Source: a virus (taxonomy: Duplodnaviria > Heunggongvirae > Uroviricota > Caudoviricetes). Taken from it: a stretch of 8,320 nucleotides of DNA. The stretch spans positions 1-8,320 of IMG/VR virus record IMGVR_UViG_2563366990_000016. One strand, 5' to 3'. Each line of letters opens with the position of its first letter. The stretch's first letter is position 1. Both the position numbers and the translations under genes were made by a program. The notes beneath the pieces are model-generated. The model made no database searches. It was not told where the DNA came from and saw only the letters and a list, made by a program, of their open reading frames with translations. This document shows, piece after piece, positions 3,155 to 8,320 of the stretch.

Positions 3155-4828
3155 ATGAACCCCACTAAACGTCTGTTACTGGGTAACGACACCATTCAGC
3201 TGGTCAGTTGTTCCGTCATGCTTGAGCTGAACGCGTGCGGACGCGGATTTATCACAGCCAGAACAGAGCAGAACTACACCGGGCGCCCCGTTCGTCTCGA
3301 TATCGGATACGGAAACGACCTGGTGCGCTGGTTTACCGGATACGTTGAACGCAGCCAGCCCGCTGAAAACGGCTCGGTGCGGCTTCTGATTCGTGAAATG
3401 GCGGGGATCCTTGATCACCCCTTCCCCTGTTCATTTCAGCACCCGACAATGCGCACGGTCACACAGTGGCTGAGTGAGACCAGCGGGCTGGAAATCATCC
3501 TGCCGGACAACGCGGCTTACACTGACAGACCCGTTCCGCATTTCACACACAGCGGCACGGGCTACGAACTGCTGGCCAGTCTGGGGCGTATTTTCTCCGT
3601 ACCGGATTACATCTGGCATCCGTTACCGGACGGCGGCATTATGGCCGCTGCTGCCGCGCAGGGGATGTTTTCCGGTCGCCCCGTCACCATCCCGCACGAG
3701 TTCAGCCAGGCATCAACGGGCGGGCACAGTATGACCCTCCCGATGATTCAGACGCTGCGACCGGGTGTGGAGGTGAACGGTCAGCGCCTGACGATGGTCA
3801 TGCTGGAAGATGACAACATGACCATCACGTGGACACCACGCAATAAAGCCACCGGCGCCCCCCTCCAGAAGTCCCCTTTCCGTCGCCAGGCTGAAAAGGC
3901 CTTCCCTGAACTGGCATCAGGGCTTCACCTGCCCAAACTGGCACGTGTTGAGGCACCGACCGAAGCCGTCAGCGCGGGCAATATTGCCGACCCGTTCAGA
4001 CCCCGCTACGCGGTGAATCTCCAGCTGCTTGACGAGAACGGCAACCCGGCAGCAGATACGCCCGTCTATAACGCCGTTCCCCTCCCCGTTCCCATGGCGG
4101 GCAGTGAGTCCGGCATGTTCCAGTTCCCGCCACCCGGAACCCTGGTGGAAGTGGGATTTGTGGAAGGCCGGGCGGATAAGCCCTTCATCCGCCAGATAAT
4201 GGCAGAGGGCCACAATCTGCCCGACGTGAAGCCGGGCGAGCAGTTGCAGCAACAGCGCGACGGCGTATCGCAGCGCGTGACGGTCGCCGGAGACTGGGAG
4301 CGCCAGACAGACCAGCGGATACAGGAGACATCACGCGAGCGCGTGGTGAGCGCAGACGAGGAAAAGCGGAGCCTGACCAGCCGGGAGACCACCATACAGG
4401 CAACCGACACAACCACCGTCCTGGGCGTATCCACGCTTCAGGCTGGCGCGGTCACCCATATCACTGAAGAGAACTACAGCATCAGCACGGGCGGGCACAT
4501 GATGGTGGTTGCCGGTACCTGTGAGCGCGACGTGGAAGGCGACACCCAGGACACCGTGGGCGGCAGCCTTACCGAAAGGATTAAGGGCGTCCGTCACAGT
4601 ATTGCGCTGGCGCAGAAGCTGGTTGGCGATACGGTGAAGCTGGGAAACGAGGGCATTAATGTACTGACCATGCTGACGGACCTTGCCGATGTGGTGGAAG
4701 AGCTGGCAGATATTACGGCATCACATACCCACCCCAAAACGGGCACGTCTCCGCAGGCCGCACAGTTCAGCCAGGTCGCTCAGGAGTGCCGCCAGCTTAA
4801 AAATAAATATTCACCAATAATCGAGTAA
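3155..4828 (+). CDS. Putative phage baseplate central spike / hub-like protein (557 aa) with gp5/gpV/VgrG-type OB-fold and His-x-His C-terminal tip
   Basis: Residues ~305-355 (nt ~4070-4220) read VPLPVPMAGSESGMFQFPPPGTLVEVGFVEGRADKPFIRQIMAEGHN, matching the recalled OB-fold signature of gp5/gpV/VgrG spike proteins (P..G..V.V.F..G..D.P.I....N). The C-terminal part has Gly/Val/Thr-rich segments (VLGVSTLQAGAVTHI, GGHMMVVAG, VGGSLTERIKGV, VGDTVKLGNEG) and ends ITASHTHPKTGTSP. The N-terminal ~280 aa are unassigned. No Walker A or nuclease motif seen. Confidence 0.55.
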   Translation: MNPTKRLLLGNDTIQLVSCSVMLELNACGRGFITARTEQNYTGRPVRLDIGYGNDLVRWFTGYVERSQPAENGSVRLLIREMAGILDHPFPCSFQHPTMRTVTQWLSETSGLEIILPDNAAYTDRPVPHFTHSGTGYELLASLGRIFSVPDYIWHPLPDGGIMAAAAAQGMFSGRPVTIPHEFSQASTGGHSMTLPMIQTLRPGVEVNGQRLTMVMLEDDNMTITWTPRNKATGAPLQKSPFRRQAEKAFPELASGLHLPKLARVEAPTEAVSAGNIADPFRPRYAVNLQLLDENGNPAADTPVYNAVPLPVPMAGSESGMFQFPPPGTLVEVGFVEGRADKPFIRQIMAEGHNLPDVKPGEQLQQQRDGVSQRVTVAGDWERQTDQRIQETSRERVVSADEEKRSLTSRETTIQATDTTTVLGVSTLQAGAVTHITEENYSISTGGHMMVVAGTCERDVEGDTQDTVGGSLTERIKGVRHSIALAQKLVGDTVKLGNEGINVLTMLTDLADVVEELADITASHTHPKTGTSPQAAQFSQVAQECRQLKNKYSPIIE

Positions 4829-4842
4829 TTATTCACTTTAAC

Positions 4843-4867
4843 AGGCCGCGCAATGTGGCCTTTTTTA
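4843..4867 (+). terminator. Weak rho-independent terminator candidate after the tail operon
   Basis: AGGCC-gcgcaatgt-GGCCT short stem followed by TTTTTTATT (4861-4869), 15 nt after the stop at 4828. The stem is only 4-5 bp, so this is marginal. Confidence 0.35.
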
Positions 4868-4949
4868 TTCCCCCGACAATAAAAAATATTCATCACCGGA
4901 CATCACCCGCCACGAAAAAACCGTCCGCAGCAGAAAAAAAGATGGACGA

Positions 4950-5530
4950 AACGCCCCACGTAATCCCCACGTAAAACGTCGCGTAACGCCACGTAACGAA
5001 GAAATAATCCCGCCAGCCCGATTCGATCCCCTGACATCAGAAAACGATTTCTGCGCCCCAAAATCGCCGCAAATGGCCGGAAATTTTCGGGGGCGACGTA
5101 ACGCGTAAAGTGACGTAATCGGCGCTACCCCGCACACGCCTCCGGTATTTGTGTACGATAAATTTTGCAAATCGAAAGGGGTGCAAAACACCCCTCCAGG
5201 GCGCGCCATTACTGAGGTTTTCCCTTCTGAATGGTTTTGCACTTTGTGCAAGGTTTTGCAAAAGTGTGCAAAAACTCCGGCTTTCTGAGGATCCCGAAAA
5301 ATTTTAATGCACTGAATAACAAGAGATTTTTAAAATTACGTCACGATCGAAGATCTGAAAAAGGATCCGGTGACGAAAACGGAAAAATCAGGAAAACCAG
5401 AACTGGCGCGGCCTGGCGGGGAGTGGCAGCAAAAATCACTTTTGCACACTTTTGCACAACTGCTCCGAAAAAGGATGGCGAAGGGGAAGGAAAACAGCCG
5501 GATCATCCGTTGCACGTAACGGACGTAAAA
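4950..5530. repeat. Repeat-dense non-coding region: array of (C/G)ACGTAA heptamers, TTTTGCA(C/A) palindromes and phased A-tracts
   Basis: (C/G)ACGTAA at 4957, 4968, 4980, 4990 (spacing 10-12 bp), 5095, 5102, 5112, 5338 (inverted), 5513, 5522. TTTTGCA / TGCAAAA at 5163, 5182, 5235, 5247, 5254 (perfect palindrome TTTTGCAAAA 5254-5263), 5268, and a tandem CTTTTGCACA x2 at 5439-5458. Hairpin AGGGGTG-caaaa-CACCCCT at 5176-5195. A5-7 tracts roughly every 10-11 bp at 5372-5400. No convincing ORF. Confidence 0.5.
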
Positions 5531-5538
5531 GGTAAATT
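5510..5538 (+). promoter_or_regulatory. Putative sigma70 promoter for hok-like unit 1
   Basis: TTGCAC (5510-5515), 17-nt spacer, TAAATT (5533-5538), placed just 5' of where the duplicated unit begins (~5540). Pattern match only. Confidence 0.4.
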
Positions 5539-5690
5539 ACGCGCGGGTGCCTTTCGGCTGACGGCTGGAAGGAATACCTGAAGGCCGGATGTGAAAAGGC
5601 CCCGAGTCAACTAACGTTAACCCGAGGCCCTGACACTTCCTACCTGACAAGTGGAAGGTTAGCGCCTCCCTGTAAAAGGAGTCAAGCGCT

Positions 5691-5831
5691 ATGCCGCAAA
5701 AAACGATCATAGTGAGCATTTTATGCATAACTATTTTGATGATTGTCTGGATGATACACAAGTCACCGTGTGAGTTCAGGCTTAACATCATGTGGTCACA
5801 ATTTGCGGCGTTCTTGCAGTGTAAACAGTAA
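5691..5831 (+). CDS. hok: Hok/Gef-family type I toxin, HokA/PndA-like small membrane peptide (46 aa), copy 1
   Basis: Not in the ORF track (too short). AAGGAG at 5677-5682 sits 8 nt before ATG 5691. Translation MPQKTIIVSILCITILMIVWMIHKSPCEFRLNIMWSQFAAFLQCKQ has the Hok architecture: N-terminal MPQK, one hydrophobic helix, then K-S-x-C-E and AAFL-x-CK, resembling HokA/PndA as recalled. A ~145-nt leader precedes it. Confidence 0.75.
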   Translation: MPQKTIIVSILCITILMIVWMIHKSPCEFRLNIMWSQFAAFLQCKQ

Positions 5832-5921
5832 GAAACCGCAGCGGGGGTGAAAGCCCCCGCTATCCGGTTGCCGGGTTCGGTCGATATGGCACCCCTTTCT
5901 CCATTGGATTACAGACGTATT

Positions 5922-5947
5922 TGCCCGCAATATGCGGGCGTTTTTTT
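5922..5947 (+). terminator. Rho-independent terminator of hok-like unit 1
   Basis: GCCCGCA-ata-TGCGGGC stem-loop (5923-5939) followed by GTTTTTTT (5940-5947). Confidence 0.65.
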
Positions 5948-5964
5948 ACCGTCCCCCTCAAGCA

Positions 5965-5993
5965 TTGCGCACACAAAGGGAAATCAGTACATT
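5965..5993 (+). promoter_or_regulatory. Putative sigma70 promoter for hok-like unit 2
   Basis: TTGCGC (5965-5970), 17-nt spacer, TACATT (5988-5993), just 5' of the second unit. Confidence 0.4.
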
Positions 5994-6148
5994 ACACGCG
6001 GGTGCCTTTCGGCTGATGGCTGGAAGGATTACCTGAAGGCCGGATGTGGAAAGGCCCCGGAGTCAACTTTAATGTTAACCCGAGGCCCTGACCATCTACC
6101 CTAAGCAAGTGGAAGGTTAGCGCCTCCCTGTAAAAGGAGTCAAGCGCT

Positions 6149-6289
6149 ATGCCGCAAAAAACGATCATCGTGAGCATTTTATGCTTAACCATGTTGTTGA
6201 CTGTCTGGATGATACACCGTTCTCCGTGTGAGTTCAGACTTAACATCATGTGGTCAGAATTTGCGGCGTTCTTGCAGTGTAAACCGTAA
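6149..6289 (+). CDS. hok: Hok/Gef-family type I toxin, HokA/PndA-like (46 aa), copy 2
   Basis: AAGGAG then ATG at 6149. Translation MPQKTIIVSILCLTMLLTVWMIHRSPCEFRLNIMWSEFAAFLQCKP, a handful of substitutions from copy 1. Not in the ORF track. Confidence 0.75.
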   Translation: MPQKTIIVSILCLTMLLTVWMIHRSPCEFRLNIMWSEFAAFLQCKP

Positions 6290-6486
6290 GAAACCGCAGC
6301 GGGGGTGAAAGCCCCCGCTATCCGGTTGCCAAAGGTTCGGTCGAAAGTCGCACCCTCACACAAAAGGCACAAAGAAAAATAAATATCCTCCGGCATAGCC
6401 GGAGGTTTTTCAAATGCGCCTATAAGGCTCTCTTACCAGCCGCGCCCTAACAGGCGCACACGATCTGACATTTGCATCCAACTTCG

Positions 6487-6945
6487 TTACTTACGGCCCG
6501 TAAACGGGCTGCCCGGATAGGGAATCGATAACTGCTCTCCCATTTTATCCTCTTCAAGCTGGTGCTTTATGTAATCCTGTATCTTCGCCGTGTTCTTACC
6601 CACCGTATCGACGTAGTACCCTCTGCACCAGAACTCTCTGTTCCTGTATTTGAATTTCAAATCACCAAACTGCTCGTAAAGCATCAGACTGCTTTTCCCT
6701 TTCAGATATCCCATAAAGCCGGATACACTCATTTTGGGCGGGATCTCCACAAGCATATGGATATGATCTGCACAGCATTCAGCTTCAAGAATCCGTACGC
6801 TTTTCCACTCACACAGCTTTCTCAAAATACTGCCTATTGCTCTACGCTTCTCTCTGTAGAACACTTGTCTTCGGTATTTTGGCGCAAAAACTATGTGATA
6901 TTTACAGTTCCATCGGGTGTGCGCTAAGCTCTTTTCGTTCCCCAT
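6487..6945 (-). CDS. tnpA: IS200 transposase TnpA (Y1 HUH transposase), 152 aa
   Basis: Translation from the internal Met (MGNEKSLAHTRWNCKYHIVFAPKYRRQ...HIHMLVEIPPK...GYYVDTVGKNTAKIQDYIKHQLEEDK) carries the HUH motif (HIH) and the catalytic tyrosine region, and matches IS200 TnpA as I recall it. The annotated ORF start at 6996 is an upstream extension. The ATG codon spans 6943-6945 and is preceded by GGGGG. Confidence 0.9.
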   Translation of the reverse strand: MGNEKSLAHTRWNCKYHIVFAPKYRRQVFYREKRRAIGSILRKLCEWKSVRILEAECCADHIHMLVEIPPKMSVSGFMGYLKGKSSLMLYEQFGDLKFKYRNREFWCRGYYVDTVGKNTAKIQDYIKHQLEEDKMGEQLSIPYPGSPFTGRK

Positions 6946-6950
6946 TGGGA

Positions 6951-7020
6951 CCCCCTTTTGATTTCTTGTTTGACACTTGCAGTTGCCAGACCGCAAGGTG
7001 TTTTAACAAATCAAAAGGGG
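6951..7020 (-). promoter_or_regulatory. IS200 5' leader stem-loop that sequesters the tnpA ribosome-binding site
   Basis: CCCCCTTTTGATTT (6951-6964) is complementary to AAATCAAAAGGGG (7008-7020). The arm next to the start codon contains the GGGGG Shine-Dalgarno on the minus strand. This fits the known translational repression structure of IS200. Confidence 0.5.
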
Positions 7021-7324: not shown

Positions 7325-8320
7325 ATGATACAACCTATTTCCGGCCCTCCTCCTGGGCAACCACCAGGTCAGGGAGATAACCTGCCGTCTGGCGCGGGCA
7401 ATCAGCCTTTATCCAGTCAGCAACGTACTTCGCTGGAAAGCTTAATGACGAAAGTGACCTCACTGACGCAACAGCAAAGAGCAGAACTGTGGGCGGGTAT
7501 CAGGCACGATATTGGTCTGTCGGGAGATTCACCGCTGCTTTCGCGTCACTTCCCTGCCGCTGAGCACAATCTGGCGCAACGTCTGCTGGCCGCGCAAAAA
7601 AGCCATTCTGCCCGCCAGCTTTTAGCGCAATTAGGGGAGTATTTACGTCTGGGGAATAATCGTCAGGCGGTCACGGATTATATCCGTCATAACTTTGGTC
7701 AGACGCCGCTGAATCAGCTCTCACCGGAGCAATTAAAAACCATTCTAACCCTGTTGCAGGAAGGGAAGATGGTTATTCCGCAACCGCAGCAGCGCGAGGC
7801 GACCGACCGTCCGTTATTACCGGCGGAGCACAATGCGCTCAAACAGCTGGTGACCAAACTTGCGGCGGCAACGGGAGAACCCAGCAAACAGATCTGGCAA
7901 TCGATGCTGGAACTTTCCGGGGTGAAAGATGGCGAGTTAATTCCAGCGAAACTGTTTAACCATCTGGTGACCTGGCTGCAGGCGCGTCAGACGCTAAGCC
8001 AGCAAAATACGCCGACGCTTGAATCACTACAGATGGCGCTGAAACAACCTTTAGATGCCAGTGAACTGGCGGCGTTATCGGCATATATCCAGCAAAAATA
8101 TGGCCTTTCTGCGCAATCATCGCTTTCTTCTGCCCAGGCCGAGGATATTCTTAATCAGCTTTATCAACGGCGGGTTAAAGGGATTGATCCGCGTGATATG
8201 CAACCGCTGCTTAATCCTTTTCCACCGATGATGGACACGTTGCAAAATATGGCAACGCGTCCCGCGCTGTGGATACTGTTAGTCGCGATTATCCTGATGC
8301 TGGTCTGGCTGGTTCGTTAA
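7325..8320 (+). CDS. flk: Flagellar regulator Flk-like protein (331 aa), C-terminally membrane-anchored
   Basis: AAGGA at 7311-7315 precedes ATG 7325; stop TAA is the last codon of the window. Pro/Gln-rich N-terminus MIQPISGPPPGQPPGQ and a single C-terminal hydrophobic helix (ALWILLVAIILMLVWLV) match what I recall of enterobacterial Flk. The identification is from memory and not verified. Confidence 0.65.
   Translation: MIQPISGPPPGQPPGQGDNLPSGAGNQPLSSQQRTSLESLMTKVTSLTQQQRAELWAGIRHDIGLSGDSPLLSRHFPAAEHNLAQRLLAAQKSHSARQLLAQLGEYLRLGNNRQAVTDYIRHNFGQTPLNQLSPEQLKTILTLLQEGKMVIPQPQQREATDRPLLPAEHNALKQLVTKLAAATGEPSKQIWQSMLELSGVKDGELIPAKLFNHLVTWLQARQTLSQQNTPTLESLQMALKQPLDASELAALSAYIQQKYGLSAQSSLSSAQAEDILNQLYQRRVKGIDPRDMQPLLNPFPPMMDTLQNMATRPALWILLVAIILMLVWLVR

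Follow-up and report, generated by a model that had tools for sequence, protein, structure and literature searches.

What function resides in the short stretch of DNA that separates a tail operon from two hok loci, at positions 4900-5530 of the window (the whole stretch analysed here, 8,320 nt)? An initial annotation had recorded a dense array of short repeats at this location and had interpreted it as a multi-site protein-binding region, naming integrase or excisionase arm-type sites, replication iterons, an operator array and an RNA gene as candidates. The general reading is supported, as both motif families are strongly enriched and even distant relatives carry them at conserved positions. 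The evidence points to an option that was absent from those four candidates, namely a cos packaging site. Based on sequence comparison, we consider it about 90% probable that 4900-5530 is the cos packaging region of a peduovirus prophage of the HP1/ESSI-2/SI7 type.

The window is the right end of such a prophage. It comprises, in this order, tail fiber genes, an orf35-like baseplate gene, a terminator, the repeats, two hok/sok cassettes and the host junction at ~6383. The orf35-like gene (3155-4828, + strand) is the last late gene and encodes a baseplate/spike protein of 557 aa (PHROG 2258 'baseplate protein', E 2e-241). This protein shares 38-66% identity (tblastn) with orf35 of SI7, ESSI-2, phiO18P and HP2, in all of which it is located at the right end of the genome, and the homologue of its gene is the one preceding cos in HP1-like phages. 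The gene is followed by the intrinsic terminator of the late (tail) operon (4843-4868, + strand), composed of a stem at 4843-4861 and TTTTTATT. At the other side of the repeats, two tandem hok/sok toxin-antitoxin cassettes (5532-6330, + strand) are present as direct repeats with 93-94% identity, with sok matches at 5545-5702 and 6000-6160 and hok ORFs at 5691-5831 and 6149-6289. The repeats are thus flanked by the tail operon and the hok loci, as described initially. Similarity to hok loci in 650 E. coli genomes begins at 5527-5532, and the cassettes are cargo inserted between cos and attR, outside cos.

The approximate prophage/host junction (attR, 6375-6390), with a DUF4875-like remnant and flk to its right, was placed at ~6383, where identity ends in a comparison with this same prophage as integrated at serS/dmsA of E. 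coli 04-00955. The latter prophage is ~98% identical and starts with int, an HTH regulator gene, cox, an A-type replication endonuclease gene, ogr, the portal gene and terminase, followed by P2-type capsid genes, gpM, tail genes, the orf35-like gene, the repeat region, two hok copies and host DNA. Genes for a P2-type terminase, with gpM as the small and gpP as the large subunit, are present in this prophage, elsewhere than in the window, and a DNA methyltransferase is also encoded by this prophage type. The full repeat region was detected in 12 of 5426 complete genomes, and published work likewise describes ESSI-2-like prophages as uncommon in E. coli (PMC6969025).

The repeats belong to two families, labeled A-sites (SACGTAA family) and B-sites (TTTTGCA(A/C) family), and signed positions are counted from the cosN block at 5125-5140. 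SACGTAA has nine exact matches in the 8,320-nt window against 1.24 expected, a number reached by none of 200 shuffles, and eight of these nine are located in 4957-5528 (+ strand, 4957, 4968, 4990, 5095, 5112, 5513 and 5522; − strand, 5336-5342). Nine matches to TTTTGCAM were counted in the window against 1.11 expected, eight of which fall within 5163-5457. The enrichment beyond chance that had been claimed is therefore confirmed, as are the proposed minimum of seven TTTTGCA(C/A) elements and the perfect palindrome, tandem pair and hairpin, all three of which were located. The reported ten (C/G)ACGTAA copies are only reached when two one-mismatch CGCGTAA variants (4979-4985 and 5103-5109) are added to the eight exact copies. 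A/T tracts are numerous, and the phasing ascribed to them initially is putative.

From left to right, the layout begins with a distal A-site array (4957-4996, + strand), composed of CACGTAA at 4957, 4968 and 4990 and a CGCGTAA variant at 4979. The four sites at helical-turn spacing that were noted earlier indeed show an exact 11-nt spacing, provided that the variant at 4979 is included, and they occupy -168, -157, -146 and -135. The same array is found in three other contigs with the cosN 16-mer of the window (L047, L050 and L053), and a fourth such contig (L076) has its middle copy at -145 instead of -157. Relatives have at most one A-site near -158 to -169; the 11-nt phased array has expanded in this lineage specifically. 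The proximal A-sites (5095-5118, + strand) comprise GACGTAA at 5095 (-30) and 5112 (-13), with the CGCGTAA variant at 5103.

To the right of the nick block, the first B-sites (5163-5193) are TTTTGCAA at +38 on the + strand and TTTTGCAC at ~+55/+56 on the − strand. The latter belongs to a local hairpin (5177-5193, GGGGTG-CAAAA-CACCCC) that is not conserved among the relatives compared. A central B-site cluster (5235-5273, +110 to +141) contains the palindrome TTTTGCAAAA at 5254-5263 and occupies positions common to relatives. An inverted A-site, GACGTAA, follows on the − strand (5336-5342, +211), next to three GATC sites (5345-5367; 5345, 5352 and 5364, or +220, +227 and +239), with another GATC at ~+165. 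Across relatives, GATC recurs at +27, +154, +165, +201 and +222 to +241. An AT-rich conserved element, ATAAC...TGTTTTTAAA, is found at ~+185 to +205. The tandem B-sites (5439-5458, + strand) form a CTTTTGCACA pair, i.e. two copies of TTTTGCAC, at +315 and +325. The right distal A-sites (5513-5528, + strand), CACGTAA at +388 and GACGTAA at +397, are the last element before the hok cassette. A-sites thus flank the nick site on both sides, the inverted copy being located ~225 bp from the -13 copy, and B-sites lie to its right.

The block on which this layout is centered, CTACCCCGCACACGCC (5125-5140), is predicted by homology to be the equivalent of cosN, i.e. the staggered-nick site and cohesive-end sequence. 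Searches of the region against a phage collection with megablast and blastn gave no matches, and homology only became visible once the flanks of the neighboring protein gene were collected. The block is identical at 14 of 16 positions to CTACACCGCACCCGCC, which corresponds to both the terminal redundancy of ESSI-2 and the breakpoint of the SW5 record, and at 11 of 16 to CTCATCCGCTCCCGCC, the annotated cosL/cosR of phiO18P. The 16-nt cohesive ends of phiO18P are annotated at 1-16 (cosL) and 33970-33985 (cosR) of NC_009542.2, ~200-300 nt past its orf35-like gene, with int at 609. The linear ESSI-2 record carries CTACACCGCACCCGC at both ends, a terminal redundancy of 15 nt. The SW5 record opens with GCACCCGCC and closes with ...CTACACCGC, and the SI7 record lacks exactly CTACACC at the nick block. 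The window carries CTACCCCGCACACGCC at the position aligned to these record breaks. The 16-mer CTACACCGCACCCGCC is invariant in another 18 loci from enterobacteria and in Yersinia phage 324, all of which have an A-site-like heptamer ahead of it and TTTTTCAGT at +38. As the 16-mer of the window differs at two of 16 positions from this nearly invariant block, the site could be either altered or co-adapted.

All sequences were anchored on the cosN block to compare positions. A-sites, in the form SAC(G/A)(G/T/A)AA, recur at -30, at -13 and, inverted, at +209 to +222, and B-sites, as TTTTGCA(A/C) or TTTTCAGT, at +38, ~+55, +110 to +141 and ~+318. The full anchored layout is common to the window and prophages of Citrobacter, Buttiauxella, Rahnella, Erwinia and Kluyvera. 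The -13, ~+212 and +38 positions are kept even in phiO18P (Aeromonas) and HP2 (Haemophilus), the latter also keeping -30. SACGKAA occupies -30 and -13 in the Citrobacter, Buttiauxella, Kluyvera and MAG prophages, and the -30/-13/cosN pattern was found in 57 IMG/VR viral contigs, of which 37 also have an inverted SACGKAA at +209 to +213; as these contigs were chosen by the -30/-13 pattern, they measure its spread rather than providing independent conservation. The inverted SACGKAA at +209 to +213 is shared by the Citrobacter, Rahnella, Erwinia and Kluyvera prophages, is replaced by a variant (AACGGAA) in the Buttiauxella prophage, and is positioned at +214 in phiO18P and +222 in HP2. Every relative compared has the +38 B-site, either as TTTTGCAA or as TTTTCAGT, and a further B-site is present in relatives at +314 to +320. 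Counterparts of the right distal A-sites occur as a direct copy at +370 in phiO18P and at ~+403 to +415 in Erwinia and a MAG.

The fixed positions of both motif families around the cohesive-end block lead us to read the region as the cos packaging site. Its location is in agreement with an HP1-like cos, between the orf35 homologue and attP/int and not beside the portal gene, based on synteny with SI7, ESSI-2, phiO18P and HP2. In HP1 and HP2, cos adjoins attP, whereas in P2 it adjoins the portal gene (PMC2771037).

The A-site letter differs between lineages. The window, AJ1 and SI7 lineages each keep to a single form, ACGTAA or ACGGAA, and the HP2, ESSI-2 and Ewingella types are mixed. We considered a concerted ACGTAA/ACGGAA change, since 52 of the 57 contigs are uniform, but rejected it: these represent few lineages, and neither HP2 nor the ESSI-2 and Ewingella types obey the rule. 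The mixed letter in these three types makes the case for a co-evolving specificity weak. The gpM protein aligns with its counterparts in SI7, ESSI-2, phiO18P and HP2, and six gpM proteins, which are too few for a co-variation analysis, align end to end with 38-66% identity and no domain swap.

Among the alternatives, regulation is the one that survives best, although we consider it improbable. The repeats would then regulate a promoter that drives hok/sok, a leftward transcript or int, with the B-sites as operators of a regulator, a role that could coexist with cos. The palindromic B-sites (TTGCAC-N3-GTGCAA and TTTTGCAAAA) resemble dimeric HTH operators, the conserved stretch exceeds known cos sites in length, and a terminator-like hairpin on the − strand (5193-5177) is followed by a T-rich run. 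However, no sigma-70-like promoter was predicted in 4700-6500, where 1.8 were expected, and this absence of promoter-like sites speaks against the operator array suggested initially. In addition, the B-sites keep their distances to the nick block regardless of what follows it (hok, attP or other cargo), the hairpin at 5177-5193 is not kept in relatives, and hok/sok cassettes have their own promoters in other genomes that lack this region.

Even less probable is that the repeats are integrase and/or excisionase (Cox) arm-type sites of attP, now in attR. The region does lie within the last 1.5 kb of the prophage, and a Cox-family protein is encoded by this prophage type. P2 and 186 have Cox/Apl binding arrays of direct repeats at helical-turn spacing, which the one-turn direct repeats at 4957-4996 resemble. 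Arm-type sites are expected within ~100-250 bp of the crossover core or junction, whereas the nearest repeat (ending at 5528) is ~850 bp away from ~6383, with two hok/sok cassettes intervening, and the phased array is on the side of cos that faces away from attP. Moreover, the register of the repeats follows the cohesive-end block despite different integrases and insertion sites (serS/dmsA, flk, and tRNA-like sequences beside int in phiO18P and HP2), and it is a different repeat, TGGACA pairs, that flanks int in SI7, ESSI-2 and the 04-00955 prophage. We therefore do not retain this initial proposal.

Two further candidates of the initial annotation are hardly tenable. Iterons of a replication origin, or of a plasmid-type maintenance element tied for instance to hok/sok, would account for the short direct repeats, GATC sites and AT-rich stretches, which are typical of iteron origins, and for the neighboring hok/sok, a plasmid-stabilization module. 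Yet no initiator (Rep) gene is present in the window, and the ORFs over the repeat region have no Pfam or PHROG match. This prophage type replicates by means of a P2 A-type rolling-circle endonuclease, the gene of which is ~25 kb away, and the same layout, centered on a known phage genome-end sequence, is present in relatives without hok (SI7, ESSI-2, phiO18P and HP2). A structured non-coding RNA gene is equally hard to sustain. A long conserved non-coding phage region with several inverted repeats might suggest one, but apart from noise no Rfam match was obtained in 4900-5530 at E up to 10, and the long inverted repeats are not nested. RNAalifold on seven genera (333 columns) gave -27.5 kcal/mol with a covariation term of +0.41, i.e. 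no support, and the predicted pairs mostly link copies of the palindromic B-motif. Promoter-like sites are also absent from 4700-6500 and terminator-like elements from 5000-5530. Mu- or Tn7-like transposon ends, considered in view of the ACGAAA-like repeats in the region, were dropped given the P2/HP1-type integrase and replication genes present.

Under the preferred reading as a packaging site, the cos region is positioned between the orf35-like gene and attP/int in the excised circular genome. The phage terminase, composed of the P2 gpM/gpP homologues encoded outside the window, would assemble on it and nick CTACCCCGCACACGCC at 5125-5140 in a staggered fashion to start DNA packaging. Nicking would leave 5' cohesive ends, presumably of a length similar to the 16 nt of the relatives phiO18P and PV94. 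The overhang of HP1 is 7 nt. The A- and B-repeats are most likely the terminase-recognition sites, judged by their arrangement; they would seat the terminase nucleoprotein complex, possibly together with an accessory or host protein, in a role like that of lambda cosB and cosQ. We infer that the cos of this particular prophage is functional, with cleavage and overhang length as predicted for 5125-5140.

The conserved ~570 bp exceeds characterized cos sites, and part of the region may serve another function. A more tentative and rather doubtful idea is that the HP1-type cos is an unusually large (~570 bp) two-motif signal, in which two DNA-binding specificities loop the nick site. These could be the small terminase and a second phage or host factor, with a loop from the -13 to the inverted ~+212 A-site. 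By analogy with P1 pac, adenine methylation might in addition control cos cleavage, considering the conserved GATC sites around the nick site and the Dam-like methylase of the phage. The lineage of the window would then represent a variant form in which the nick block has changed, ACGTAA is uniform, sites are more numerous and packaging specificity is distinct.

Of the named systems, the cos of phiO18P is the most direct comparison. CTCATCCGCTCCCGCC is homologous to CTACCCCGCACACGCC and likewise located after the orf35-like gene and before attP/int, with A-site CACGGAA at -13, inverted at +214 and direct at +370, and TTTTGCAA at +38. It differs from the window by its ACGGAA instead of ACGTAA A-sites, by the absence of the phased array (-168 to -135) and the +388/+397 doublet, by having two overlapping B-site matches (+38/+40) compared to eight, and by the absence of hok/sok cargo between cos and attP. 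The closest sequenced phages are ESSI-2, SI7 and SW5 (Peduoviridae: Seongnamvirus, Irrigatiovirus), with an orf35-like protein that is 58-66% identical and with record ends or anomalies that fall in CTACACCGCACCCGCC. SI7 has TTTTGCA B-sites at the same positions as the window but GACGGAA A-sites, ESSI-2 has GACAAAA A-sites and TTTTCAGT B-sites, and in both phages hok does not adjoin cos.

HP1 and HP2 have the same genome organization as the prophage in the window, although they infect a distant host and their flanks have no detectable nucleotide similarity to the window beyond the motifs. In line with the layout of the window, HP2 has CACGGAA or CACGTAA at -43, -30 and -13 before its right end, an inverted CACGGAA at +222, TTTTCAGT at +38 and an end block CT...CCCGCC. 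Unlike the window, its G and T forms of the A-site are mixed and its only B-site is the one at +38, in the TTTTCAGT form. HP1 has cohesive termini, and the ends of its reference record are its physical ends (PMC4893331); for the cohesive termini of HP1/HP2, that source cites Fitzmaurice 1984 and Esposito 1996. Run-off sequencing revealed 16-nt 5' overhangs in PV94, which is related to K139, a phage of the HP1 group (PMC3986222).

The cos of P2/P4, served by the same terminase family, has a 19-nt overhang and lies beside the portal gene (Ziermann and Calendar 1990, as cited in PMC9122126), not beside attP as in the window; both sequence and overhang length differ. Cargo hot spots directly adjoin cos in P2/P4 (Rousset et al., PMC9122126), as the hok/sok cassettes do here. 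Lambda cos is organized as cosQ-cosN-cosB and includes gpNu1-binding R sites as well as a site for IHF, as outlined in PMC4669245. The likeness to the window is one of analogy, namely a nick site between repeated elements on both sides that would be recognized by the small terminase. There is no sequence or protein homology. The prophage type in the window has a P2 gpM/gpP-type terminase, and the window has two motif families and a conserved span of ~570 bp compared to ~200 bp in lambda. None of the 11 anchored sequences contained a strict IHF consensus (WATCARNNNNTTR) between -260 and +470.

The repeats thus mark an ordinary phage feature, the predicted cos of an HP1/ESSI-2-type prophage, of which the internal layout has probably not been studied before. 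A repeat cluster that lacked an explanation becomes a landmark for the packaging site and the ends of the virion genome in a prophage type seldom found in E. coli, and the 'hypothetical protein' genes that pipelines place over it are probably spurious. Some phage reference records contain small errors exactly at cos, SI7 lacking 7 nt and SW5 having 2 nt in excess. A limited literature search yielded no footprinting or cos-plasmid packaging work on the two-motif layout, for which this layout, conserved from Haemophilus to Escherichia, is a concrete map. Read as cos, it defines the requirements for satellite or cosmid packaging by HP1/ESSI-2-type phages.

By every sequence-level criterion tested, the repeat region (window 4900-5530) is a member of the cohesive-end packaging site (cos) family of HP1-type peduoviruses. 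It occupies the position of such a site, is homologous to known genome ends and carries two motif families that are conserved position-specifically over a very wide host range. The initial annotation was right in its general reading of a multi-site protein-binding region, which the position-specific conservation of both families supports, whereas none of its specific candidates (att arm-type sites, an iteron origin, an operator array or an RNA) held. In HP1-like peduoviruses cos adjoins the attachment site attP, while in P2 it lies beside the portal gene (PMC2771037).

The repeats exceed chance as proposed. Motif A, a SACGTAA-type heptamer, has nine copies in the 8320 nt of the window where 1.24 would be expected, a count that 0 of 200 dinucleotide-preserving shuffles reached. 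Eight of these copies fall in 4957-5528, of which only that at 5336-5342 is on the - strand and the other seven are on the + strand; the ten (C/G)ACGTAA copies originally claimed are reached only if CGCGTAA, with one mismatch, is included at both 4979 and 5103. The four sites described as about one helical turn apart (4957-4996) are an A-type set with an exact 11-nt period (4957, 4968, 4979 and 4990). Motif B, a TTTTGCA(A/C)-type element, had been counted at least seven times on first inspection; as TTTTGCAM it is present nine times in the window (1.11 expected), and all but one of these copies lie in 5163-5457. The palindrome (5254-5263), the tandem CTTTTGCACA pair (5439-5458) and the hairpin (5177-5193) were each located in the sequence.

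The last late gene of the window (3155-4828, + strand; 'baseplate protein', PHROG 2258), followed by a terminator (4843-4861), is orf35-like: homologues of its product are HP2 orf35 and the last late gene product in phiO18P, ESSI-2, SI7 and SW5. The flanks of this gene were gathered from 26 genomes, and the seven closest were aligned with the window. Downstream of the gene lies a conserved non-coding element of ~450 nt, present in Escherichia, Citrobacter, Buttiauxella, Rahnella, Erwinia and Kluyvera, with its peak of conservation at the block CGCTACACCGCACCCGCCTGC. Four phage records indicate that the virion genome ends in this block. CTACACCGCACCCGC stands at either end of the linear ESSI-2 record, and the SW5 record starts with GCACCCGCC and finishes in ...CTACACCGC. 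In SI7 precisely CTACACC is missing at the block, and for phiO18P the annotation gives cohesive ends (cosL 1-16 and cosR 33970-33985, CTCATCCGCTCCCGCC) ~200 nt past the orf35-like gene and places int at 609. The window block CTACCCCGCACACGCC (5125-5140) is identical to the enterobacterial consensus at 14/16 positions and to phiO18P at 11/16. The exact 16-mer CTACACCGCACCCGCC was found in 18 further enterobacterial loci and in Yersinia phage 324, each time with an A-like heptamer before the block and TTTTTCAGT at +38, counted from the first base of the block. A 16-nt 5' overhang has been demonstrated experimentally in PV94, which is related to phage K139 of the HP1 group (PMC3986222), and HP1 has cohesive termini, the ends of its reference record being the physical ends (PMC4893331).

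Two of these records show irregularities at the block itself. In SI7 (NC_049460.1; locus L031, ~5890) the 7 nt are missing precisely at the block start compared with prophage relatives, and in SW5 (MK972713.1) the record break falls within the block, where 2 nt are duplicated. Each is probably an artefact of assembling across cohesive ends. Alternatively, the SI7 gap could hint at a 7-nt overhang, the length of the HP1 overhang.

When the block's first base served as the common anchor for all sequences, the positions of both motifs coincided among them. Motif A (SACGKAA here, SAC(G/A)(G/T/A)AA in general) lies on the + strand at -30 and -13 in relatives and inverted at +211 to +214 (+222 in HP2), with additional copies in some near -158 to -169 and +370 to +415. 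For motif B, the window, phiO18P and prophages of SI7 type have TTTTGCA(A/C), whereas ESSI-2, HP2 and the majority of other genera have TTTTCAGT; enterobacterial sequences carry it at +38, +54 to +56, +110 to +141 and +314 to +325. The -13, ~+212 and +38 positions also hold in phiO18P and HP2, the latter having -30 as well. A pattern scan of IMG/VR for the -30/-13/block arrangement picked 57 contigs, of which 37 also carry motif A inverted at +209 to +213; the window's own 16-mer occurs in four, three matching the full site map and the fourth differing in one distal copy. The window lineage is set apart by a block with two base changes, by a consistent ACGTAA form of motif A, by additional A copies (those of the phased array, 11 nt apart from -168 to -135, plus a doublet at +388/+397) and by a doubled B-site (+315/+325). 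Just left of the inverted A-site, an AT-rich element, (G)ATAAC-N3-5-TG(A)TTTTTAAA (window ~5305-5335, +185 to +205 in relatives), is kept from HP2 to E. coli; it has no strict IHF consensus match and may be a bend or host-factor site.

The repeat region is complete in just 12 of 5426 complete E. coli genomes. Strain 04-00955 carries a ~98% identical copy in a prophage between dmsA and serS, ordered int, an HTH regulator gene, cox, an A-type replication endonuclease gene, ogr, portal, large terminase, scaffold, P2-type capsid, gpM, tail genes, three genes of unknown function, the repeat region and two hok. In the window the same prophage right end meets another host locus, a DUF4875-like remnant (truncated ORF, 6487-6996, -) and flk (7325-8320, +), and the match to the 04-00955 copy breaks off at ~6383; the repeat region therefore travels with the phage. 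Between cos and this junction lie two tandem hok/sok cassettes (5532-5872 and 5987-6330; repeats 93-94% identical, Rfam sok matches under the gathering score), the first starting directly past the last A-site and so bounding the element on the right at ~+400. Other P2-like prophages integrated at flk also have a hok adjoining attR (L003, L004), and a related prophage there, that of E. coli AJ1 (NZ_OZ547217.1; locus L045, 5189-6467), carries parM and a partition/stability gene as cargo after the replication endonuclease gene, plasmid-type segregation genes being unusual for an integrating P2/HP1-type prophage. Left of cos, the distance from the orf35-like gene to the block varies from 178 to 2203 nt (as in L009, L010, L013, L016, L022, L028 and L040), which indicates a second cargo insertion point; Yersinia phage 324 has an annotated gene there. 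Since the host flank is merely ~92-93% identical to E. coli genomes, the window may derive from a non-coli Escherichia; close ESSI-2-type prophages are mentioned in E. albertii (PMC6969025).

Among the other readings, an operator array is disfavoured, as a search for promoter-like sites in 4700-6500 found none and the layout is constant whatever lies downstream, though part of the 570 bp may have a secondary regulatory role. Against a structured RNA, the local hairpin is not kept in relatives, no covariation was seen and the repeat region has no Rfam match. Iterons of a replication origin fit poorly, as no initiator gene is close by, replication proceeds via a rolling-circle endonuclease encoded ~25 kb off, and the array also occurs in relatives without hok. 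Three observations exclude arm-type sites: the prophage junction (~6383) is too far away, the motif register follows cos and not att, and a different repeat adjoins int. A coding region was ruled out, as ORFs over the repeat region gave zero Pfam or PHROG family matches. RefSeq annotates 'hypothetical protein' genes over cos in the 04-00955 prophage (locus L001, 20064-20207, -, and 20416-20751, +; ~ window 4894-5037 and 5246-5581), and SI7 has two small annotated ORFs across it; given the missing matches and non-coding-like evolution, these calls are probably spurious.

The layout resembles lambda cos in that a nick site is flanked by repeated, here predicted, recognition elements, whereas the repeat region is unrelated in sequence, lacks an IHF consensus and has two motif families spanning ~570 bp. 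The strict IHF consensus was likewise absent between -260 and +470 from all 11 anchored sequences searched for it. Although cos is a well-known kind of element, a limited literature search yielded no account of a conserved motif map for the HP1-type family. GATC occurs in the window at 5290, 5345, 5352 and 5364 (+165, +220, +227 and +239), and many relatives (L005-L030) have it at recurring positions: 15 of 27 anchored sequences at +27, 12 at +154 and 9 at +165, besides copies at +201 and +222 to +241. A DNA methyltransferase gene is part of this prophage type (04-00955 prophage locus L001, 8119-8871), and the combination recalls the P1 pac site, where cleavage is controlled by methylation.

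Homologues of gpM and gpP were found in the sister prophage of 04-00955. A P2-type terminase would recognise the repeats, nick inside 5125-5140 and package from there; its oligomeric small subunit may bridge the facing A-sites at -13 and +212, and the B-sites may be bound by that protein or a second one. The motif letter is uniform within the locus in 52/57 contigs, but co-evolving specificity was given little weight on this ground, as the pattern reduces to few lineages and is broken in HP2, ESSI-2 and Ewingella types. The type of motif B is out of step with host phylogeny, TTTTCAGT being common to HP2 and ESSI-2 and TTTTGCAA to phiO18P and E. coli, which mildly favours a phage-encoded binder of the motifs over a host factor.
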